Shown here piece after piece: positions 5,901 through 42,915 of a stretch of DNA of 64,000 nt (position 1 is its first letter; every line of letters starts with the position of its first letter). Below the pieces are notes generated by a model. It ran no database searches. It saw nothing but the letters and a program-made list of their open reading frames with translations, and was not told where the DNA came from. Both the position numbers and the translations under genes were made by a program. The stretch comes from Gemmatimonadota bacterium (lineage in GTDB: Bacteria; Gemmatimonadota; Gemmatimonadetes; Palauibacterales; Palauibacteraceae): the NCBI GenBank assembly GCA_032251515.1, contig JAVVDU010000010.1, positions 5,244 through 69,243 of the forward strand, read 5' to 3'.

Positions 5901-6815
5901 TCAGCCGCCCGGCATGCCCGCCGGGACCGGGGGCACCGTGCCGGACGGCGTCGTCCGGCGGATCCGCTCCGCGAGGTCCAGGGCCCGTCGCACTGCCGCC
6001 ACGTCGTGCACCCGGAACAGGCGGGCGCCCCGCTCGAGGGCCGCCACGCAGGCGGCGAGCGTGCCCTCCAGGCGCTCCCGCAGGGGAAGGCCGAGAAGCT
6101 CGCCGATGAACGACTTGCGCGATGGCCCCACCAGCACCGGATACCCGAGCCCGGCGAACGTGCCGCAGCCGGCGATGAGCTCCAGGTTCCCCTCCGGCGA
6201 CTTCCCGAACCCGATGCCCGGATCCACCACGATCCCGTCCGCCGGGACGCCCCGCTCGCGGGCCAGGGCGGCGCGGCCCTCCAGGTAGCGGGCGACCTCC
6301 GGAACGAGCGCGCCGTAGCTCACGTCGTCCTGCATAGTGCGCGGGTCCCCCCGCATGTGCATCAGCACGAGGCCCGCTCCCGTGCGGGCACACAGGTCGG
6401 CGATGCCCGGCGATGCGGACAGCGCGGACACGTCGTTCACGACCACCGCACCGGCGTCCAGGGCCCGCGCGGCGACCTCCGGCTTCGTCGTGTCCACCGA
6501 GACGGGAACAGCCTCCGCGGCGAGCGCCGCCACCACGGTCCCGATCCGCCGCCACTCCTCGGCGGCGTCCACGGCCGCGGCGCCGGGACGCGTCGACTCC
6601 CCGCCCACGTCGACCAGGTCCGCGCCCTCGTCACACATGCGGCGCGCATGGGCGAGCGCGGCTCCGGGATCCCGCCAGCGACCGCCGTCGGAGAAGGAGT
6701 CCGGCGTGAGGTTCAGGATCCCCAGCACGACGGGCCGCTCGAGCGCGAACCGCCGGTCACGGGCCCGCCAGCTGCCGAACGGCGGGCGCCCGGTCCGCGG
6801 CGGCTCGTTCGACAC
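5901..6815 (-). CDS. folP: dihydropteroate synthase
   Basis: Pterin-binding motifs ILNLTPDSFSDGG, DVGGESTRPGA, SVDTTKPEVA, GAVVVNDVS, GIGFGK. Confidence 0.9.
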   Translation of the reverse strand: MSNEPPRTGRPPFGSWRARDRRFALERPVVLGILNLTPDSFSDGGRWRDPGAALAHARRMCDEGADLVDVGGESTRPGAAAVDAAEEWRRIGTVVAALAAEAVPVSVDTTKPEVAARALDAGAVVVNDVSALSASPGIADLCARTGAGLVLMHMRGDPRTMQDDVSYGALVPEVARYLEGRAALARERGVPADGIVVDPGIGFGKSPEGNLELIAGCGTFAGLGYPVLVGPSRKSFIGELLGLPLRERLEGTLAACVAALERGARLFRVHDVAAVRRALDLAERIRRTTPSGTVPPVPAGMPGG

Positions 6816-11729: not shown

Positions 11730-12443
11730 TCAGGTTACGAGCGTCCCGATCCGCTCTCCCCGCAGGGCGGAGAGAATCGCCCCCGGCCGGCGGATGTTGA
11801 GCACGATGACGGGAAGCTGGTTCTCCCGGCACAGCGACATGGCAGCCGCGTCCATCACCTGCAGCTCGTTGTTGATCACGTCCCGGTAGGTCAGCTCCTC
11901 GAGGAACTCCGCCTCGGGATGCTCGGCCGGGTCGGCCGAGTACACGCCGTCGACCTTCGTCGCCTTCAGGATGACGTCGGCCTCCATCTCGATGGCCCGG
12001 AGAACCGCCGCCGTGTCGGTGGAAAAGTACGGGTTGCCGGTACCGCCCGCGAAGATCACGACGCGCCCCTTCTCGAGGTGCCGCAGGGCGCGGCGCCGGA
12101 TGTACGGCTCCGCCAGCTGTTCCATGCGGATCGCCGTCATCACGCGCGTCTCCACGCCCGAGCGCTCGAGCGCGTCCTGGAGGGCGAGGGCGTTGATCAC
12201 GGTGGCCAGCATGCCCATGTAGTCAGCGGACACCCGGTCCATGCCCTCGCGGCTGGCCTCGGTGCCGCGGACGATGTTTCCGCCCCCCACCACGAGGCCC
12301 AGCCTCACCCCCGCGGCGTGTACGGCACCGATCTCGCCGGTGAGGGTCTCGACGACCTGCGGCTCGATGCCGAATCCACGGGCCCCGGCGAGCGACTCGC
12401 CGGAGAGCTTCACCAGGGCCCGGGGATAGCGCAATCCGGTCAC
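11730..12443 (-). CDS. pyrH: UMP kinase
   Basis: [48 protein letters not shown]. Confidence 0.9.
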
Positions 12444-12453
12444 GGCCGGCGCC

Positions 12454-13305
12454 TCACTCCCCGATCTCGAACCGCGCGAAGCCGCGTACCGTCACGGCCT
12501 CGCCGTGCCGCCCCAGCAGCTCGCCCACCGTCACGTCGGGCTCGCGCACGAACGGCTGCAGGAGAAGCGCCTGCTGCTCGAAGAACTTCCGCATCCGTCC
12601 CTCCACGATCCGCTCGACGATCGCCTCGGGCTTGCCCTCGGCCTTCGTCTGTTCCGCCAGCACGGCCCGTTCCCGGTCTCGCACGTCCGCCGGGATGTCC
12701 TCCGGGGTCACCCCGGCCGGACGGGTCGCCGCCACGTGCATCGCGACCTGGCCCGCCACCGCGCGCGCATCGTCTCCCTCCGCCCCTTCGAGCTCCACCA
12801 CGACTCCGCGCTTGCCGTCGAAGTGAAGGTAGCTGCCGAGGGCCCGATCCGGGGCCGCCGCGAAGCGCACCGCCCGGTGCACCTGGATGTTCTCGCCGAT
12901 GCGGGAGCGCAGGTCGGCCACCTCGTTCGCGAAGGGCGCGAACGCCGGGCGAGCGAGCAGCGTCTCGCCGTCCACCGGCCGGCCGGAATCGAGATCCGAG
13001 GCGGCGACCGCCTCGGCGAGCCGGCGCGCGAACTCCTGGAAGTCCGCGTTGCGCGCCACGAAATCCGTCTCGCTCGCCACCGCCACCATCGCGGTGGCGT
13101 CCCCGCTCTCGACGATCTGCACGCTTCCCTCGGTCGTGTCGCGACCGGCGCGCTTCGCCGCCTTGGCGCTGCCCCACTGGCGGAGCAGGTCGATCGCCTT
13201 CTCCTCGTCGCCGCCGGCCTCGGACAGGGCCTTCTTACAATCCATCATTCCCGCGCCCGTGCGGTCGCGCAAGGATTTCACCGCCTGTGCCGTGATCCCG
13301 GACAT
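12454..13305 (-). CDS. tsf: translation elongation factor Ts
   Basis: Internal start [27 protein letters not shown]; UBA-like N-terminus plus the EF-Ts dimerisation domain. Confidence 0.9.
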
Positions 13306-13403
13306 CTCTGCCTGCTCTCCTCGCTCTGGGTCCCGGAGGCCACGTGGCGCGCATGCGTCGCGGCCGGTCGGGCCCGGTTCTCCGTGTGAAATCCGACTTC
13401 CCC

Positions 13404-13430
13404 AAAAAAAAAGGGCCACCGAGGTGGCCC
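13404..13430 (-). terminator. intrinsic terminator (or attenuator) between rpsB and tsf
   Basis: Minus-strand RNA GGGCCACC-UC-GGUGGCCC followed by a U9 run; 14 nt after the rpsB stop. This is the only long homopolymer in the window. Confidence 0.6.
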
Positions 13431-13443
13431 GCCGCCCCGCGGA

Positions 13444-14481
13444 TCAGGGAGAGCCGCCGGCCTCCCTGTCGCGCTCCGCCGCGGGCGCGGCCCCGGCTTC
13501 TTTGGCTTCCGGCTCGCCACCGCCGGCGTCCGTCACCGTCCCGGACGTCTCGTCCGCGGCAGCGACGTCCTCGGAACCGGCCTCCTCGGACGCGCCGGCC
13601 GGCCCCTCCGAGTCGTCCGCCGTCTCCGCGCTGCCCGGCTCGGGATCGGTCGGATGCAGCCGCCGCTTGATGAGCTCCGGCTTCGGCCGGCGCCGCGGCC
13701 GCTTCCGCCGCTTGGTCGGGCCCGCCGCTTCCGCCTCTCCCGTCTCGGTCGAGTACGTGTAGACCTCGCCCTCCTCCTCGGCGGCCTCGCCCTTCGGCTT
13801 GTCGCGCCGGGCGGCCTCGATCTCGTCGCAGATCGCCCGGGTGATCAGGGACACGGACCGAATCGCGTCGTCGTTGCCCGCGATGGGCACGGTCAGCATG
13901 TCCGGATCCGCGTTCGTGTCGGCGATGGCCACCACGGGGATCCCGAGACGGTTCGCCTCGCGGACCGCGATCTCCTCCTTCTTGGCGTCGACCACGAACA
14001 CGACGCCGGGAAGGCGATTCATGTCCTTGATGCCGGAGAGGTACCGGTCCAGCTTCTGGCGCTCCCGCTCGAGCAGCAGCTTTTCCTTCTTCGTGTAGAA
14101 CTCGAACGCCCCCTCCTCGGAGCCTCTCTCCAGCTCCTTGAGGCGGCGGATGTTCTGTTTGATCGTCTGGAAGTTCGTGAGCATGCCGCCGAGCCAGCGC
14201 TCGGTGACGTAAAACGTGCCCACGCGCTCCGCCTCCGCCCGGATGATCGGGGCGAGCTGCGGCTTGGTGCACACGAACAGGACGCCGCCGCCCGCACGGA
14301 CGGTCTCGCCGACGAGGGCGCGCGCCCGGTTCAGCTCCCGCAGCGTCTTCTTGAGGTCGATCAGGTAGATCCCGCCGCGCTCGGCGAAGATGTACCGGCG
14401 CATCTTCGGGTTCCAGCGGTGCGTCTGGTGCCCGAAGTGCACGCCCGCCTGCAGGAGTTCCTTCAGTCCGACTTCAGTCAT
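13444..14481 (-). CDS. rpsB: 30S ribosomal protein S2, with ~95-aa acidic C-terminal extension
   Basis: MTEVGLKELLQAGVHFGHQTHRWNPKMRRYIF...; the S2 core is followed by a long Glu/Asp/Ala/Gly-rich tail. Confidence 0.9.
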   Translation of the reverse strand: MTEVGLKELLQAGVHFGHQTHRWNPKMRRYIFAERGGIYLIDLKKTLRELNRARALVGETVRAGGGVLFVCTKPQLAPIIRAEAERVGTFYVTERWLGGMLTNFQTIKQNIRRLKELERGSEEGAFEFYTKKEKLLLERERQKLDRYLSGIKDMNRLPGVVFVVDAKKEEIAVREANRLGIPVVAIADTNADPDMLTVPIAGNDDAIRSVSLITRAICDEIEAARRDKPKGEAAEEEGEVYTYSTETGEAEAAGPTKRRKRPRRRPKPELIKRRLHPTDPEPGSAETADDSEGPAGASEEAGSEDVAAADETSGTVTDAGGGEPEAKEAGAAPAAERDREAGGSP

Positions 14482-17374: not shown

Positions 17375-18175
17375 TCAACTCCAATGCAACCCCGCCGTTG
17401 CGCCCCGGTTTCCACGCCCCCGCCGGCGGGCGGCGGCACGGACCGCGGCATCGTTCGAGGCGCTCGCCGCGCCGGTGGTCGTGCCACGCCGGAACTCGAG
17501 CCCTCCGGGTCCCGTCCGCACCTCCGTGATGTGCGGCGGCAGCGGGACGAGGAGGCGGGGACCGGCCGCGCGCACCCCGGGAATCTGCAGGCGGGGCAGC
17601 AGCAGGGGAATCGCCAGCGCCGGAACGACGATCGGGCCGGCCTGCAGGGCGATCACCCGCAGCGCCCCGGTCCCCGGCTCGCGCACCTCCGGCACGAGCT
17701 CTACCGCGAGGCGTGCCGTGTCGGCCAGGATGTCCCGGATCACCTCCGGCGGCGCGACGCCGGACAGGTGCTCCGGCCGCAACCGGGCCGTCAGGACGAG
17801 GGTGGAGTCGCGGACCTCCACCGTCGGGTCCTCGATCCCCGCGGCGAGCAGGGGACCCCACGTATACGTGAGCAGGCTCTGCAGTTCGGCCTCGGAGAGG
17901 CGCACCGTTCCCCCGTCCGGGTCCGCCAGCTCCCGGATCCGGGCCTCGGCCCGCCGCGCCAGGGCCTCGCTCGGCTGGGAGGCGGGAGCCAGCTCGATCC
18001 GCCCCGCGAGCCGCGACAGGGGAGCGCGGAACGCCCACGCCCCGGCCGCCACGAGCGCGACCGCGAGCAGACATCCGATTCCCGACCGGCGTCTTCTTCC
18101 CACCCGCCCCTCTCCTCTCCCGGCGAGCGCGGACGAACCGCGCCTTCCGTCCGGGCGGCCCGCACGGCGGGCCAC
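17375..18175 (-). CDS. hypothetical membrane-anchored protein
   Basis: Sits 3 nt downstream of thpR on the same strand. Arg-rich N-terminus plus a TM segment (IGCLLAVALVAAGAWAF). No recognised family. Confidence 0.4.
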   Translation of the reverse strand: MARRAGRPDGRRGSSALAGRGEGRVGRRRRSGIGCLLAVALVAAGAWAFRAPLSRLAGRIELAPASQPSEALARRAEARIRELADPDGGTVRLSEAELQSLLTYTWGPLLAAGIEDPTVEVRDSTLVLTARLRPEHLSGVAPPEVIRDILADTARLAVELVPEVREPGTGALRVIALQAGPIVVPALAIPLLLPRLQIPGVRAAGPRLLVPLPPHITEVRTGPGGLEFRRGTTTGAASASNDAAVRAAARRRGRGNRGATAGLHWS

Positions 18176-18178
18176 CGC

Positions 18179-18742
18179 TCAATCGTTCGCGAGAAACGCC
18201 GTGTGCAGCGTCCGGTGCTCGTACTCCGCCGGGCCGGGAACGCTGCACACGAGATCCACCCGCGACACCTCGAAACCGTCGACCGTTTCCGCCCCGCACG
18301 TGGCGCGCGCCAGCGCCTCGGCCGCCGCCGGCCCGCCTCCGGGGCGGACGCGGCCCAGCGTCAGGTGCGGACGGAACGCCTTCCCATCGCCCGGGTGCCC
18401 GACGGCGGCCAGGGCGCGTTCGACGTCCGCGTACAGCCCGCCGAGCGCCGCGTCGGCCTCCACGCCCAGCCACAGCACGCGCGGCCGGCGCGGCGAGGGA
18501 AAGGCCCCGGGCCGCCCGAACCGCAGGCGGAACGACGGCCGCGACGCGACGGCGCCGTCGAGCGCCCGCACGATCCCGGCGACCTCCGCCTCGGGCACTT
18601 CGCCGAGGAAGCGCAGGGTCAGGTGGAGCCGCTCGGGCCGTACCCACCGGGCCCGGACCCCACCCCGCCGGAACGCTCCGGCCAGCCTGTCGATGGCCGC
18701 CCGCCGATCCGCCGGCACCGGGATGGCGACGAACACCCGCAT
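18179..18742 (-). CDS. thpR: RNA 2',3'-cyclic phosphodiesterase (ThpR/LigT, 2H family)
   Basis: Two H-x-T/S-x motifs: HLTLRFLG and HLTLGR. Confidence 0.85.
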   Translation of the reverse strand: MRVFVAIPVPADRRAAIDRLAGAFRRGGVRARWVRPERLHLTLRFLGEVPEAEVAGIVRALDGAVASRPSFRLRFGRPGAFPSPRRPRVLWLGVEADAALGGLYADVERALAAVGHPGDGKAFRPHLTLGRVRPGGGPAAAEALARATCGAETVDGFEVSRVDLVCSVPGPAEYEHRTLHTAFLAND

Positions 18743-18897
18743 TTCCCCACCTCGCGCGGTCCGTGTGCAACGCCGGCAGCCGCCCCGGAGGTTCCGGCGC
18801 GCCGCCGGTCTCCTTTCCCCGCCCCACGCCCCTGCCGTACGATGGATCCCTTGACCCGGTTCCGGAGGTGCGCAGGGTGAACATCCAGGATACGAAG

Positions 18898-19410
18898 ATG
18901 CCCGTTCACGCGATCCGCGTCGAGAAGGAGTGCCTCGGCTTCGCCGCCGGGCACTTCATCACGTACGGGGGCGGGCAGTGCGAGACGCTGCACGGCCACA
19001 ACTACCGCACGGGCGTCGAGCTGACCGGCCCGCTCGATGCACACGGCCTGGTGGTGGACTTCGTGATGGTGAAGCGCGAGCTGGAGGGAATCCTCCGTCC
19101 CCTCGATCACCGCATGCTGCTGCCCACCGGCAACCCGGCCCTGTCCGTCGAGCGGCGGGACGGCTCCGTGGAGGTGCGGCACGGCGACCGGCGCTACGTG
19201 TTCCCCGAGGAGGACGTCGCGTTCCTGCCCGTGGCCAACACGACGGCGGAGCTGCTCGCCGGCTGGATCGCGGAGCGGCTCGTGGAGCGGCTGGCGGCTC
19301 ACGGCGTGTCCGAGCCGGACGATCTGGTCATCGAAGTGGAGGAGTCGTTCGGGCAGAGCGCCACGGTTCGCCGCACCGGCGGGCGGCGGACAGCGCCTCC
19401 CGCCACCTGA
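18898..19410 (+). CDS. queD: 6-carboxytetrahydropterin synthase / PTPS-family protein (COG0720)
   Basis: AGHFITYGGGQCETLHGHNYRTGVEL, the C-x3-HGH zinc/catalytic motif. ATG at 18898; an alternative GTG is at 18877. Confidence 0.8.
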   Translation: MPVHAIRVEKECLGFAAGHFITYGGGQCETLHGHNYRTGVELTGPLDAHGLVVDFVMVKRELEGILRPLDHRMLLPTGNPALSVERRDGSVEVRHGDRRYVFPEEDVAFLPVANTTAELLAGWIAERLVERLAAHGVSEPDDLVIEVEESFGQSATVRRTGGRRTAPPAT

Positions 19411-19417
19411 GGCGGCC

Positions 19418-20875
19418 GTGCGGCTGCAGCGGACGGGCCCCGGGCGTCTCGCGGTCAGGGGAGGGCCCGAGCCGTCCGAGGTGTTCCGAGGTCTCGCCGG
19501 CAGGCCGGGGGCGCTGTGGCTCGACAGTTCCCTGCCCGGTGGATCGGCGGGCCGGCGCTCGTTCATCGCGGCGGACCCGTTCGCCGTCCTGACCTGCCGG
19601 GACGGACGCTGCCATCTCGCCGGGGCGGCCGGCGCCTTCCCGGTCGAGGGGCCCCCCTTCGACGCGCTGCACCGCCTGCTCGTGCGCTGGCCGGGCGACC
19701 CGGGAGACACGTTCGCCGGCGGCGCCGCCGGCTTCCTCGGCTACGAGCTCCTGCGCGAGCTGGAGGACGTTCCGCCGGCACGAGACCGCGACCTCGACGT
19801 TCCCGACCTGGAGATCGCCTTCTACGACCTGGTGCTGGGCTGGGACCATGCGGCCGGGTCCGCCTGGATCGCCTCCACGGGGCAGCCGGAGCGGGGGGCG
19901 GCGGCGCACCGGCGCCGGGAAGAGCGGCTCGCCGCCGGAGCGGCCTGGCTGCGGGGGGAGGCTCCGTCCGGGGCGGACCCGGGGCGCCGACCCTCCCCGG
20001 ATGCGCTCGCCACGCCGCCGCCCGGAGCGCCGACCGGCCGGCCGGGCCTCGCGGCGTCGTTCGACCGGCCCGGTTACGAGGCGGCGGTACGGGAGGCCAT
20101 CGAGCGGATCCGGGCGGGCGACATCTTCCAGGTGAACCTCGCGCAGCGCTTCGTGGCGCCGGCCGCCCCCGACCCGCTCGCCTTCCACCTCGCGTTGCGC
20201 GAGAGGTCTCCCGCCCCGTTCGGCGCGTTCTTCCGGGGCCACGACGCGGTGGTCGTGAGCGCCTCGCCGGAGCGCTTCCTCCGCGTGGACGCGGCGGGGC
20301 GGGTGGAGGCGCGCCCCATCAAGGGCACCCGTCCCCGGGGCGACACGCCGGCCCGGGACCGGGCCCTGGCGGCCGAACTGACGGCCAGCGCCAAGGACCG
20401 GGCCGAGAACCTGATGATCGTGGACCTCGTGCGGAACGACCTGTCGCGGGTCTGCCGGCCCGGGACCGTCCGGCCGCGAAAGATCTTCCAGCTCGAGTCG
20501 TACGCGACCGTGCACCACCTCGTCTCGGTGATCGAGGGCCGCCTGCGCCCGGGCACCGGCATCGTCGACCTCCTGCGGGCCGCGTTTCCCTGCGGCTCGG
20601 TCACCGGCGCGCCGAAACCACGGGCCATGGAGATCATCTCCGAGCTGGAACCCGTCCGCCGGGGACCGGCCTACGGCGCGATGGGCTGGTTCGGTGGCCC
20701 CGGGACGGCGGACCTCTCCGTGGCGATCCGCACGGCCGTGCTGAGCGGCGGACGGGCGACGTTCCACGTGGGCGGCGCAGTGGTGGCCGACTCGGACCCG
20801 GCCGCGGAGTACCGCGAGACGCTGGACAAGGGACGGGCCCTCGCGGCGGCCCTGGGAACGGACGAGCTGCAGTGA
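19418..20875 (+). CDS. pabB: aminodeoxychorismate synthase component I, or anthranilate synthase I family
   Basis: Chorismate-binding domain: GDIFQVNLAQRF, SASPERFLRVD, RPIKGTRPRG, ENLMIVDLVRNDL, AFPCGSVTGAPK, GAMGWFG. Confidence 0.85.
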   Translation: MRLQRTGPGRLAVRGGPEPSEVFRGLAGRPGALWLDSSLPGGSAGRRSFIAADPFAVLTCRDGRCHLAGAAGAFPVEGPPFDALHRLLVRWPGDPGDTFAGGAAGFLGYELLRELEDVPPARDRDLDVPDLEIAFYDLVLGWDHAAGSAWIASTGQPERGAAAHRRREERLAAGAAWLRGEAPSGADPGRRPSPDALATPPPGAPTGRPGLAASFDRPGYEAAVREAIERIRAGDIFQVNLAQRFVAPAAPDPLAFHLALRERSPAPFGAFFRGHDAVVVSASPERFLRVDAAGRVEARPIKGTRPRGDTPARDRALAAELTASAKDRAENLMIVDLVRNDLSRVCRPGTVRPRKIFQLESYATVHHLVSVIEGRLRPGTGIVDLLRAAFPCGSVTGAPKPRAMEIISELEPVRRGPAYGAMGWFGGPGTADLSVAIRTAVLSGGRATFHVGGAVVADSDPAAEYRETLDKGRALAAALGTDELQ

Positions 20876-21516
20876 TCCTCCTCATCGACAACTACGACTC
20901 GTTCGTCTACAACCTGGCGCGCTACTTCGAGGAGCTGGGCGAAGCGACCCGCGTGGTGCGCAACGACCGGATCGGGGCCGCCGAGGCGCTCGCCGCCGGC
21001 GCGACGCACCTCGTCCTGTCGCCCGGTCCGCGGACGCCGCGCGAGGCGGGAATCTGCCTCGAGCTGGTCCGGCTGGCGCGGGACGTCCCCACCCTCGGCG
21101 TCTGCCTCGGGCACCAGTGCCTGGGGGCCGCGTTCGGCGCCCGCGTCGTGCGGGGTCCGCCCGTGCACGGGAAGTGCAGCCGCATCCGGCACGACGGGAC
21201 GGACCTGTTCACCGGCCTGCCCTCTCCCCTGTCCGTCGTCCGCTACCACTCGCTCGTGGTGGACCCGGGCTCGCTGGGCCCGGACCTCGTGCCCCTGGCC
21301 TGGACGGAGGGCGGCATCCTCATGGCGCTGCGCCACCGGAGGCGTCCCGCGTGGGGCGTCCAGTTCCATCCCGAGGCCGTCCTCACCGAGGCCGGCCACG
21401 CGCTGCTGGCGAACTTTCTCGCGCTGGGACGCGGCCGGGCGCCGGGCGGTCGCGCGGCCGCCCTCCCCGCGCCCGAGGTGGCACCGGGATCCGTGGAGGC
21501 CCCGGCGGCGGAGTGA
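20872..21516 (+). CDS. pabA: aminodeoxychorismate/anthranilate synthase component II (class I glutamine amidotransferase)
   Basis: GTG start overlapping the pabB stop. VILLIDNYDSFVYNLARYF, GVCLGHQCLG (catalytic Cys), VQFHPE. Confidence 0.85.
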   Translation: MILLIDNYDSFVYNLARYFEELGEATRVVRNDRIGAAEALAAGATHLVLSPGPRTPREAGICLELVRLARDVPTLGVCLGHQCLGAAFGARVVRGPPVHGKCSRIRHDGTDLFTGLPSPLSVVRYHSLVVDPGSLGPDLVPLAWTEGGILMALRHRRRPAWGVQFHPEAVLTEAGHALLANFLALGRGRAPGGRAAALPAPEVAPGSVEAPAAE

Positions 21517-21559
21517 GCCGGAGGGCCGGCGGCGGGGGGCGATGACGGGCCACGCCTCC

Positions 21560-23113
21560 TCACCCGCCGACGACGGGCGCGCCCCCGCGGAAGTGCAGCG
21601 CCTCCGCCACGTGTCCGGCCTCGACGCGGCCGGATCCGGCGAGGTCGGCCACCGTCCGCGCGACGCGCAGGACCCGGTGCTGCGCGCGGCCGCCGAGCGG
21701 CAGCCGCTCCGCCGCCTCGCCGAGCAGGGCCTCGGCCCCGGCGGTGAGCCGGCACGCCTCGGCCAGTGCCGGTCCCGGGAGCTCGGCGTTGCACAGGGCG
21801 GCGCACGCCCCGGCCGAGGAGAGACGGGCCGCCCGGCGGCGCGCTCGCTCCCGGGCGTTCCGGACCCGGTCGCGCACGGCGGCCGTCCGCTCGCCCCCGT
21901 CCGCGCCGGGACGCATGTCGCGCCACGGCACGGCCGGCACCTCGAGCCGCAGGTCGAACCGGTCCAGCAGGGGGCCGCTGATCCGGCCCACGTAGCGGCG
22001 CACCGCTCCCTCGTCGCAGACGCAGCGACCCGTGCCGGAGGTGCGATAGCCGCAGGGACAGGGATTCATCGCGGCCACGAGCTGGAAGCGGGCCGGGAAC
22101 GAGGCCACGGTGCGGGCCCGCACGATCCGGACGCATCCTTGCTCCAGCGGTGCCCGCAGCCCCTCGAGCACCGATGCGCGGAACGCCTGGAGCTCGTCCA
22201 GGAACAGCACCCCCCGGTGCGCGAGGGACACTTCGCCCGGCGCGGGCGAGCTGCCCCCGCCGAGCAGCCCGGCGGCCGTCACGGTGTGGTGCGGGGCCCG
22301 GAACGGTCGCGCCACGCGCGCCGCCTCTCCGGCGGCCGCTCCGGACGCGATCCCGTGCACCATCATCGTCTCCACCGCCTCGGCGGCCGTGAGCGGCGGG
22401 AGAAGCCCGGGCAACCGGTTCGCGAGCATGGTCTTGCCCGCCCCCGGCTCGCCGCTCAGCAACAGATGGTGCCCACCGGCCGCGGCGATCTCGAGGGCCC
22501 GCCGGGCGGCGGACTGGCCTCGCACGTCGGACAGGTCCGGGTGGTTGGTCGCGGGAGCGGGCGGCGGCGCGCGGGGCGGGCGGGCGAGCGGCGCCCCCTC
22601 CTCCAGCCACGACAGTACCGCACCGAGGTCGGACGCCCCGAAGATGCGCAACCGCCCTTCGTGCAGCCCGGCGAGCTCGGACAGCCCGGCGCGCGGTACC
22701 ACGAGCGTGTCGATCCCCGCATCCCCGGCGGCGTGCAGGGCGAAGGCGAGCACGCCCCGGACCGGCCGGACAACGCCGCTGAGGCCCAGTTCGCCCACGA
22801 GGGCCGTCCGCGCCAGGCGGCGGTCCACGTCGGCTCCCCGCCGCGCCAGGATCGCCGCCGCGATCGGGAGGTCGAACGCCGCGCCGTCCTTGGGGAGATC
22901 CGCGGGCGCCAGGTTCACGGTGACCCGCAGGCCCGGGATCCGCCGCCCGAGCGCCGCGGCGGCGGCACGGACCCTCTCGGCCGTCGCCCGCGCGGAGGCG
23001 GCCGGGAGCCCGCTCGCGTGAATCCCGGGCGTGCCCCTGCGGACCGCCACTTCGATCCGCACGGGCACGGGCCGGATCCCACTCAGTCCATAGGCGGCGG
23101 CGACCCTGTACAC
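21560..23113 (-). CDS. comM: YifB/ComM family Mg-chelatase-like AAA ATPase
   Basis: Lon-like N-domain, Walker A LLSGEPGAGKTMLA, VLFLDELQAF, and the C-terminal Cys cluster AAMNPCPCGY. Confidence 0.85.
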   Translation of the reverse strand: MYRVAAAYGLSGIRPVPVRIEVAVRRGTPGIHASGLPAASARATAERVRAAAAALGRRIPGLRVTVNLAPADLPKDGAAFDLPIAAAILARRGADVDRRLARTALVGELGLSGVVRPVRGVLAFALHAAGDAGIDTLVVPRAGLSELAGLHEGRLRIFGASDLGAVLSWLEEGAPLARPPRAPPPAPATNHPDLSDVRGQSAARRALEIAAAGGHHLLLSGEPGAGKTMLANRLPGLLPPLTAAEAVETMMVHGIASGAAAGEAARVARPFRAPHHTVTAAGLLGGGSSPAPGEVSLAHRGVLFLDELQAFRASVLEGLRAPLEQGCVRIVRARTVASFPARFQLVAAMNPCPCGYRTSGTGRCVCDEGAVRRYVGRISGPLLDRFDLRLEVPAVPWRDMRPGADGGERTAAVRDRVRNARERARRRAARLSSAGACAALCNAELPGPALAEACRLTAGAEALLGEAAERLPLGGRAQHRVLRVARTVADLAGSGRVEAGHVAEALHFRGGAPVVGG

Positions 23114-23146
23114 GCCCGAACGATGGGGCGTCGGATCATCGCGCGG

Positions 23147-23656
23147 TCATCGCTCCGGCGAGGGATGCTCCGTCTCGGGGTCCGCTCCGCTCCGCAGGGC
23201 GGTCCAGGCCCGGGGGTGCGCCCGGACCAGGAGCCCGCCCATCGCGACGCCCGCCAGGATGTTCGCGGCGGCGACGAGCCCCCAGCCCGGCACGCGGGCA
23301 CCGCTCGCCTCGAGGGCGGTGAAACCCGCCAGGGAGAGGAAGAAGCCGGCCAGGCCGGCGTACAGCACGACGATCGCGAACGAGGGGTGTCTCTCCGCCT
23401 GCAGCACGAGCCACGCCGCGGCCGTACCGATCGCCAGGAAGGCGAGCAGGTGGAGTCCGTTCACCGCGAACACGGCGCCGGCGGTCCCGCCGCGGGCCCC
23501 CGTGCCGGCGAGCCCGGATCCGAGGTCGATCGCGGCGGCGAAGAAGGAACGGCCGGCCAGCAGGCTGGCCACCCCGAAGAACAGGACGATGGCGAGATAG
23601 CCCGCGAGGCCCGCGGTGAGGCCCTCCACGAGCACGAGTCGACGCCGTGGCTGCAT
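23147..23656 (-). CDS. hypothetical membrane protein, 4-5 TM
   Basis: Hydrophobic helices, no family recognised. Located downstream of comM. Confidence 0.4.
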   Translation of the reverse strand: MQPRRRLVLVEGLTAGLAGYLAIVLFFGVASLLAGRSFFAAAIDLGSGLAGTGARGGTAGAVFAVNGLHLLAFLAIGTAAAWLVLQAERHPSFAIVVLYAGLAGFFLSLAGFTALEASGARVPGWGLVAAANILAGVAMGGLLVRAHPRAWTALRSGADPETEHPSPER

Positions 23657-23740
23657 CGGACCCTCCCTGCTGGAGACCGGTCTCGCGTCCGCTCATGGAC
23701 CGTCTTGAAATCTGTCGGATCTCAGGTTCCGCGGCTACAC

Positions 23741-24784
23741 TTGCCCGGTCCGGTCGGCACGCCCGCCCCTTCGCGGCCCGGGCTTCTGCGCGGGCCGGCC
23801 CGCTGCGCCGGCAGAGAGGAGACCGTCCTGGCGAACCCAGCACACGCCCATCCCGCCGCGTCCGCGGCGCGACCGACGACGGCCGCCGCCGGTTACGCCG
23901 CCGCCGTCGCCGCCGGAGCGCTGTGGGGTACGACCGGACCGCTGAGCACGGCTCTCTACGCGACGGGCGCCGAGCTCACATCCGTCGGCTTCTGGCGCAT
24001 CGCCGTGGCCGCCGCCGGTCTCGCCGCGCTGGCGGTCGTGCGCCCGGCACTGCGGCGCGTGGACCGCACGGCGCTCCTCCTGGTCGGGGGGCTCGGCGGA
24101 GCGCTCGTGGCCCTGTTCGAGATCGCCTACCAGTTCGGCATCGCGGGCACAGGGGTGGCGGGCGCCGCGGCCCTGCTGTACACGGCGCCCGTGCTCGTGG
24201 CCCTCCTCGCCGGTCCGCTGCTCGGTGAGCAGGTCACCGCCCGGCGCCTTCTCCTGGCCGTCGCCGTGATGGCCGGAGCGGCCCTCACCGTGCTCGGCGG
24301 AACGGGCGTGGAAGAGGTCTTCCCGGACCGCGTGCGGGGACTGGTGGCGGGCGTGATCGGCGGACTTCTGGCCGCCCTCGCGTACGCCGGCACGACGCTG
24401 GTGGCCCGGTTCGCGGTGCCCCGCTACGGGGCGCTCCGCGTCCTCGCGCTCGAGATGATGGGAGGGACGCTCCTTCTGGCGGTGATCCTGCCGCTGGCGG
24501 GTCGGCCGCCCGCCCTGCCGGGCGGTCCCGGGGCCTGGCTGTACGTGCTGCTCCTCGCCCTCGGCGCGGTGCTGGGGGCGAACGCGCTCTTCTTCGCCGC
24601 CCTGAAGCGGATCGCGGCAGCCCCGGCTTCCGTGGCGGCCACCGTCGAGCCGGTCGTCGCGGCGGGACTGGGCGTCGTGCTGCTGGGACAGGTCCTCGCC
24701 CCGGCCGGGTGGCTCGGCCTGTCGCTCGTGGTGGCCGCCGTGGCGACGGGCTACCTGCTCGAAGCGCGCGCCGGCGCCGGATGA
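23741..24784 (+). CDS. EamA/DMT family transporter; start uncertain
   Basis: Ten predicted TM helices with a duplicated EamA pattern. In-frame TTG at 23741; no ATG or GTG near the first TM helix. Confidence 0.65.
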   Translation: MPGPVGTPAPSRPGLLRGPARCAGREETVLANPAHAHPAASAARPTTAAAGYAAAVAAGALWGTTGPLSTALYATGAELTSVGFWRIAVAAAGLAALAVVRPALRRVDRTALLLVGGLGGALVALFEIAYQFGIAGTGVAGAAALLYTAPVLVALLAGPLLGEQVTARRLLLAVAVMAGAALTVLGGTGVEEVFPDRVRGLVAGVIGGLLAALAYAGTTLVARFAVPRYGALRVLALEMMGGTLLLAVILPLAGRPPALPGGPGAWLYVLLLALGAVLGANALFFAALKRIAAAPASVAATVEPVVAAGLGVVLLGQVLAPAGWLGLSLVVAAVATGYLLEARAGAG

Positions 24785-24903: not shown

Positions 24904-25602
24904 GTGAACCGGAACGAGCCAGCCGCCCCGACCCGCCTGGAGCGCCTCGCGTGGCCGGCCGTGGTGGAGCACCTGCGCAGCTCGCCGCGGCTCCTGATGG
25001 CCGTGGGAAGCTGCGTTCAGCACGGGCCGCACCTTCCACTCGGCACGGACACGCTGATCGCCGAGCGGCTGGCGGAGGACGTTGCGGCGCGAACGGGCCT
25101 CCTGCTCGCGCCGACGTTCTCGTTCGGCGTCACGTCGCGGCGCGACCGGGAGTTCGCCGGCACGGCGGCGCTGGATCGAAAGACGCTGCACCGGGTGCTG
25201 AACGAGTTCGTGGAGTCGTGGGAGCGGCACGGCCTGCAGGAGATCGTGTTCCTGACCGCGAACGGCCATCCGCGGCACATCCAGGCCCTCGCGATGGTCG
25301 TCGCCGAGCGGGTCCGCGTCCGCTCCATCGACCTGCACGCGTTCGACCTGCGGCAGTTCCTGAGCGGCGCCTCGCGTCCGGACCACGGGGGCGAACTCGA
25401 GACCTCGCTGATGCTGCATCTCGCGCCGGATCTCGTCCGCTGCGAAGCGATCCCCGCGGCGGACGAACCGGAACAGGGCGCCGCGAGGCGCCGGCCCGGT
25501 CCGCTGGGGGCCGGGGGACGTCCGTGGCTGGCCAGTGCCGAGAAAGGACGCCGGATTCATGCGCATCTCGTCGAGACCATCACCCGGCGCCTCGCCGGTT
25601 GA
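24904..25602 (+). CDS. creatininase-family amidohydrolase
   Basis: GSCVQHGPHLPLGTD and HGGELETSLMLHL motifs of the creatininase / MftE-like fold. Confidence 0.8.
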   Translation: MNRNEPAAPTRLERLAWPAVVEHLRSSPRLLMAVGSCVQHGPHLPLGTDTLIAERLAEDVAARTGLLLAPTFSFGVTSRRDREFAGTAALDRKTLHRVLNEFVESWERHGLQEIVFLTANGHPRHIQALAMVVAERVRVRSIDLHAFDLRQFLSGASRPDHGGELETSLMLHLAPDLVRCEAIPAADEPEQGAARRRPGPLGAGGRPWLASAEKGRRIHAHLVETITRRLAG

Positions 25603-42811: not shown

Positions 42812-42915
42812 CGAAACCTCCCGGGCGGACCGCGGCGACCTTTGCGCGCTTACCGCTGCTACCTTCACGGTCCTGACGGGGTTCACGCCCGCCGGCCCCA
42901 CGGGCCCGGGAGGCG
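42812..42915 (-). ncRNA. ffs: signal recognition particle RNA (4.5S type, ~100 nt)
   Basis: The minus-strand RNA contains the domain-IV motif GUCAGGACCGUGAAGGUAGCAGC (E. coli GUCAGGUCCGGAAGGAAGCAGC). The 5' CUCCCGGGCCCG pairs with the 3' CGCCCGGGAG to close the helix. Intergenic, upstream of dnaX as in many bacteria. Confidence 0.65.

Follow-up and report, generated by a model that had tools for sequence, protein, structure and literature searches.

We analyzed the gene context and probable role of a protein of the 6-pyruvoyltetrahydropterin synthase (PTPS) family, encoded directly upstream of the aminodeoxychorismate synthase genes pabB and pabA, in a 64,000-nucleotide stretch of a Gemmatimonadota contig (JAVVDU010000010.1, assembly GCA_032251515.1). 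The whole stretch, with a base composition of 73% GC, is referred to as the window, and all positions are those of the window. The features on which the analysis draws are as follows.

18179 to 18742, minus strand: thpR, RNA 2',3'-cyclic phosphodiesterase of the 2H family (TIGR02258, 131 bits against a cut-off of 65.7; PF02834).
18743 to 18876, no strand: divergent intergenic spacer of 134 bp, presumed to hold the promoter for PTPS-pabB-pabA.
18877 to 19410, plus strand: PTPS-family gene (COG0720/PF01242; PF01242 E = 8e-21), from GTG at 18877 to a TGA ending at 19410, 177 aa.
18979 to 18999, plus strand: codons of the signature C35-E36-T-L-H39-G-H41, read from the sequence.
19418 to 20875, plus strand: pabB, aminodeoxychorismate synthase component I, GTG to TGA, 485 aa (TIGR00553, PF00425, PF04715).
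20872 to 21516, plus strand: pabA, glutamine amidotransferase component II (PF00117 GATase, 174 bits).
5901 to 6815, minus strand: folP, dihydropteroate synthase, adjoining ftsH (PF00809, 263 bits).

The original prediction had described a QueD/PTPS-family gene divergent from thpR, with pabB following closely, a pabA start codon lying over the pabB stop, a CETLHGH motif, and folP in the same window, and all of these are present. The PTPS gene and thpR diverge from points 134 bp apart; the PTPS stop is followed by a 7-nt gap, so that pabB starts at the eighth base; and the pabA GTG (20872-20874) overlaps the pabB TGA (20873-20875) as GTGA. The pabB product scores 333 bits against TIGR00553, for which the cut-off is 328, and carries the PabB-type PIKGT lysine. 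We take PTPS, pabB, and pabA to form a single operon that is presumably co-transcribed, and chance is not an issue for the observed layout, because the genes are conserved. The folP gene is not contiguous with this operon, and its product is 46% identical to the FolP of a Chloroflexota locus (L018) described below. An Rfam scan of the region upstream of the PTPS gene found neither a tetrahydrofolate nor a preQ1 riboswitch, and no match to a sigma-70 consensus was found in the 134-bp spacer, although consensus searches for promoters and terminators are not informative in DNA of 73% GC.

COG0720 proteins are distinguished by their signatures, namely CxxxxxHGH in PTPS-II, CxxxHGH in PTPS-I/QueD, and ExxHGH in PTPS-III, whereas hybrids with CExxHGH work in both the folate and the queuosine pathways; this is the scheme given in PMC5041015, which summarizes and cites Phillips et al. 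2012, and the rules stated in the original prediction (Glu for PTPS-III, Cys for QueD, both for bifunctional proteins) agree with it. PTPS-III is described as a substitute for the dihydroneopterin aldolase FolB in many bacterial and some eukaryotic species, a role confirmed for eight prokaryotes and one eukaryote (PMC3223725). In the Plasmodium falciparum PTPS (PfPTPS), Glu38 is required for the formation of 6-hydroxymethyl-7,8-dihydropterin, and an E38C mutant yields the conventional product only (Dittrich 2008, PMC2229834); our use of the PTPS classes draws on these three papers and on PMC9894224. The window protein has the motif CETLHGH, which fits ExxHGH, CExxHGH, and, formally, CxxxHGH. 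Alignment placed its E36 on the catalytic Glu of PfPTPS (Glu38) and of the Plasmodium vivax enzyme (PvPTPS), and its C35, four residues before H39, on the Cys that is catalytic in E. coli QueD; the E. coli sequence used is consistent with the match to PDB 4ntk. Further, every aligned sequence has H26, H39, and H41, the pair D77-H78, and E125; by analogy with PTPS and QueD structures, we take these to be the Zn ligands, the catalytic dyad, and the pterin-binding Glu, respectively.

Beyond the motif, the whole protein resembles the Plasmodium enzymes. Its best solved-structure relatives by sequence are the P. vivax and P. falciparum PTPS (E = 3e-20 to 2e-19), which align over the full length, with 30% identity between PvPTPS and the window protein, whereas E. 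coli QueD matches at E = 3e-6 to 7e-5 in an alignment confined to the N-terminal part (residues about 15-74). An AlphaFold2 model of the window protein (mean predicted local distance difference test score 90.2) had 2a0s and 1y13, both Plasmodium PTPS structures, as its top Foldseek matches in the PDB (E about 2e-18, template-modeling (TM) scores 0.82/0.88, root-mean-square deviation 2.1 A), while QueD structures matched at E of about 1e-6 and TM of about 0.5. Moreover, the window protein and Plasmodium PTPS have in common a β-hairpin insertion of ∼30 residues that QueD does not have, in addition to the ExxHGH signature, the His triad, the Asp-His dyad, and the pterin-binding Glu. Against TIGR03367, the NCBIfam QueD equivalog model, the window protein scored 65.7 bits, below the cut-off of 89.25, although this model is its top NCBIfam match. 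These comparisons support its assignment to a predicted PTPS-III or hybrid type rather than to ordinary QueD, as had been proposed from the motif. The resemblance to known PTPS-III systems extends to clustering with folate-pathway genes, but the window protein differs from them in (i) the Cys that precedes its Glu, where Plasmodium has an Arg and classic bacterial PTPS-III a residue other than Cys, and in (ii) its partners, which are pabB and pabA instead of folK, folP, or folE. Bacterial PTPS-III proteins, COG0720 paralogs said to bypass FolB, were reportedly the subject of Pribat 2009.

The conservation of the two signature residues was examined in 202 clade members, comprising the 120 closest database homologues and 82 loci from a genome-collection scan. 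Among the 120 homologues, which are 52-66% identical to the window protein, the residues before xxHGH are CE in 109, AE in nine, PE in one, and CD in one. Across the full set, the CE motif is present in 190 members and the Glu in 201, with an Asp in the remaining one, while 11 have Ala or Pro in place of the Cys. These Cys-less proteins all belong to the window's own subclade, in which they make up 11 of 78 sequences, against none of the 124 elsewhere; because they cluster on the tree, these losses are not independent events. The pattern shows that, in the window's lineage, the uniform constraint falls on the Glu and not on the Cys.

The neighborhoods of the relatives fall into three types. 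In the first, to which the window's subclade belongs, the order thpR<>PTPS-pabB-pabA-comM is kept in four further loci (L001, L085, L086, and L087), and a Gemmatimonadales locus (L015) has PTPS-pabB with an AE motif; protein identities within this type are 55-66%. The second type comprises Chloroflexota members that carry the CE motif, are about 50% identical to the window protein, and have the PTPS gene at the usual position of folB: L018 reads PTPS-HPPK-DHPS-FolC-FolE, L041 reads PTPS-HPPK-DHPS, and in L024 and L058 the PTPS gene is followed by an HPPK::FolE2 fusion. The third type is the majority, found in Planctomycetota, Acidobacteriota, some Gemmatimonadota (including L019, L029, L039, and L045), and Rokubacteria, where the PTPS gene lies inside tetrahydromethanopterin (H4MPT)/methylofuran islands with the order fhcA/D/C - mch - rimK (myfB) - citG-like - PTPS - ATP-grasp_3 - Hydantoinase_A - AA_kinase - DUF6513/Pterin_bind protein. 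On the tree, the subclade of the window stands apart from those that are embedded in islands, and none of the island genes was found in the 64-kb window or within 10 kb in L001, L085, L086, and L087. Likewise, no match to QueC, QueE, or QueF was found in the window or in 87 related loci with E. coli seeds, with which distant homologues could be missed, and an E. coli FolB seed had no match in the same window and loci, which delimit the scope of this search.

The fusion in L024 (10477-11967) and L058 (10479-12002), both from metagenome-assembled genomes (MAGs) of Anaerolineales/Anaerolineae, joins HPPK (PF01288) and a FolE2-type GTP cyclohydrolase (PF02649) in a single open reading frame (ORF), and therefore fuses the enzymes that act before and after the PTPS step.

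The structure of the genes, the motif, the type of fold, the pattern of conservation, and the gene context of the relatives are results of the analysis, whereas the enzyme activity, co-transcription, and product destination are inferred. We consider it probable that the window gene encodes an enzyme of the PTPS-III type, which is expressed together with aminodeoxychorismate synthase and provides pteroate precursors, most likely for folate. As a Zn-dependent tunnel-fold COG0720 enzyme of motif class PTPS-I/III, it would take 7,8-dihydroneopterin triphosphate, made by GTP cyclohydrolase I, and cleave its side chain with Glu36 as the catalytic base, to yield 6-hydroxymethyl-7,8-dihydropterin (6-HMDP). 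This is the product that FolB would normally form after dephosphorylation of the substrate, so that the two enzymes would agree in product and pathway position, as well as in a tunnel fold that is predicted for the window protein. The two belong to different families, and their chemistry differs as well: FolB needs no metal and uses dephosphorylated dihydroneopterin, and PTPS-III uses the triphosphate with Zn. PabB and PabA, to both of which the PTPS would be translationally coupled, are expected to make aminodeoxychorismate en route to p-aminobenzoate (pABA), and through this coupling to aminodeoxychorismate synthase the operon would supply the pterin and the pABA branches together. FolK would then act on the pterin, after which FolP would join both products of the module to give dihydropteroate.

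A need for 6-HMDP, the product of the PTPS-III reaction, is common to pabBA operons, folate operons, and H4MPT islands; in all three contexts, 6-HMDP is pyrophosphorylated and then condensed with a pABA-derived moiety. Folate is the likeliest destination of the window's product, because (i) no H4MPT/methylofuran gene lies in the window or near its syntenic relatives, (ii) the window's subclade is separate from the island-embedded ones, (iii) the window contains a canonical folP, and (iv) the Chloroflexota relatives occur in true folate operons. The preference for a folate over a queuosine role, which the original prediction had drawn from the local context, is thus borne out by a pabBA operon conserved in the lineage, by relatives in the folB slot, and by 87 loci in which no que genes were found. 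Its interpretation was substantially right but incomplete, and we regard it as partly supported.

Several points weigh against this folate assignment. The first concerns the other genes of the pathway: folK, folE/folE2, folC, and pabC were not found within the 64-kb window by tblastn with E. coli and Chloroflexota seeds. The E. coli FolB, FolK, FolE, QueC, QueE, and QueF seeds had no matches in the window, nor did the Chloroflexota FolK, FolC, FolE, FolE2, and PabC-domain seeds, the expected pabB and folP being all that the Chloroflexota seeds matched. Second, the PTPS gene might duplicate the function of FolB instead of replacing it. Third, the window protein and most of its relatives keep the Cys of the QueD motif, so that some QueD activity is possible. 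Fourth, most clade members outside the window's lineage lie in H4MPT/methylofuran islands, sometimes with pabB, and the product could therefore feed methanopterin besides, or instead of, folate; such a destination is possible if the genome carries an H4MPT pathway outside the window.

The retained Cys bears on an extension of the folate reading, in which the protein is a dual-function PTPS-I/III that forms 6-HMDP through Glu36 and 6-carboxytetrahydropterin through Cys35, as the only COG0720 protein of the organism. The exact CExxHGH motif, which is that of the hybrids described as active in both pathways in PMC5041015, the alignment of Cys35 with the catalytic Cys of QueD, the retention of all other catalytic residues, and the predominance of CE in the clade are consistent with such a function. 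However, 11 members of the subclade to which the window protein belongs do without the Cys, no linked que gene was found at any of the 87 loci or near the window gene, and the protein scores too low for the QueD equivalog model and has a fold of another subtype than QueD. We therefore regard dual function as a tentative extension, possible but doubtful.

Less likely still is a scenario in which the pteroate-precursor module began in H4MPT islands and was later relocated and recruited to folate, or in which a single promiscuous enzyme now serves folate and methanopterin and, by way of the retained Cys, queuosine as well. PTPS and pabB are still found together inside the H4MPT islands of some Gemmatimonadales and Rokubacteria.

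A further alternative is that the window's module supplies dH4MPT instead of folate, with the PTPS as the enzyme of the pterin branch and with PabB and PabA giving pABA for RFAP synthase. The island-borne COG0720 genes belong to the same clade (47-56% identity), have the CE motif, and sometimes adjoin pabB. In 46 of the 82 loci, the PTPS gene directly follows a CitG-like gene, and these loci, among them the four Gemmatimonadota loci named above, carry fhcA/D/C, mch, rimK (myfB), ATP-grasp_3, Hydantoinase_A, AA_kinase, and DUF6513+Pterin_bind genes. Two islands contain pabB itself, as a fragment at the island end in L039 (Gemmatimonadales) and as a PabB::PabC fusion in L081. Moreover, pabB commonly accompanies H4MPT biosynthesis genes in methylotrophs, for which an island orf19-orf20-afpA-orf21-orf22 is listed (PMC3615186). 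The window gene, however, lies outside any such island and in a separate subclade; no H4MPT/methylofuran gene occurs in the window or within 10 kb in its four syntenic relatives, a canonical folP is present, and the sister Chloroflexota genes belong to true folate operons. On balance, we judge an H4MPT destination in place of folate to be improbable. With regard to the methylotroph islands, we take Orf19 to be apparently this COG0720 PTPS, from gene order; literature searches found no explicit statement to that effect.

The proposal that the protein is an ordinary monofunctional QueD, adjacent to pabBA by coincidence, is favored by the formal presence of CxxxHGH, the NCBI name '6-carboxytetrahydropterin synthase', and the QueD model as the best NCBIfam match. 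With E. coli QueD (PDB 4NTK) the protein shares the PF01242 fold, Cys spacing, Zn ligands, and Asp-His dyad, but it has 177 aa and an extra hairpin insertion against the 121 aa of QueD. We reject the proposal as highly improbable, given (i) a score of 65.7 bits under a cut-off of 89.25, (ii) a sequence and fold closer to Plasmodium PTPS by ∼10 or more orders of magnitude, (iii) the constraint on the Glu, invariant in the subclade in which the Cys is dispensable, and (iv) a linkage to pabBA, to folK/folP/folE, or to H4MPT genes that is kept across phyla, whereas linkage to que genes was never seen.

PTPS-III and PTPS-I/III proteins are already described, and the locus is not a new kind of system; new here is a member from a Gemmatimonadota lineage in which the link to pabBA is conserved. 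The main value of the result lies in annotation. The product of the PTPS gene is a 100% match to a protein (P0001) of a Gemmatimonadota MAG, which NCBI names '6-carboxytetrahydropterin synthase', and this public name is probably wrong or half right. Metabolic reconstructions of this lineage could consequently, and wrongly, report a FolB gap or credit a queuosine step. The clade also provides a clean comparative example, in which one CExxHGH group of COG0720 is wired into pabBA operons, folK-folP-folE operons, and H4MPT/methylofuran islands.

The PabB::PabC fusion of L081 (2572-4515; a Rokubacteria MAG) combines Chorismate_bind and Aminotran_4 domains in 647 aa and directly follows the PTPS homologue, inside an H4MPT-type island of the order mch-rimK-citG ... 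ATP-grasp/hydantoinase/AA-kinase. A protein of ∼490 aa with DUF6513, a weak Pterin_bind match, and PterinBD-DUF4346 is encoded in L055 (11189-12658), with homologues in the H4MPT-type islands of L017, L035, L039, and L051, and presumably fills the place of dihydropteroate synthase in the methanopterin pathway. In the Gemmatimonadales island of L039, one ORF (12257-13801) contains both an SDR and a pterin-4a-carbinolamine dehydratase (PF01329); this could be a genuine fusion, or a simple ORF caller may have joined two separate genes. Two loci from MAGs labeled 'uncultured Alcaligenaceae' (L005 and L079) have the island-type order rimK-citG-PTPS, and their PTPS groups with Planctomycetota on the tree, which could reflect mis-binning or horizontal transfer.

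Upstream of the operon, thpR is divergent from the PTPS gene at every pabBA-type locus seen (the window, L001, L085, L086, and L087). It is probably outside the functional module, and its linkage to the PTPS gene is probably coincidental, because the whole region is syntenic housekeeping DNA; that thpR is tied to cyclic-phosphate pterin intermediates is pure speculation. Downstream of the operon, a 1080-aa ORF called at 21542-24784 by a GC3 gene caller was rejected as spurious, the region being occupied instead, in the window as at the syntenic loci, by comM on the minus strand, an ORF with no Pfam match, and an EamA-type gene. Two high-GC3 ORFs without Pfam matches, both on the minus strand (17375-18052 and 23147-23692), have syntenic counterparts, likewise without Pfam matches, in L001 and L086. 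The sole Rfam match in the window at the gathering threshold is a bacterial small signal recognition particle RNA (RF00169, 42.3 bits) at 42816-42911 on the minus strand. In archaea, some creatininase-family proteins carry out deformylation steps related to pterin or riboflavin; a gene of this family (24904-25602, plus strand; PF02633, 169 bits) lies a few kilobases downstream of the operon and is syntenic in all pabBA-type relatives.

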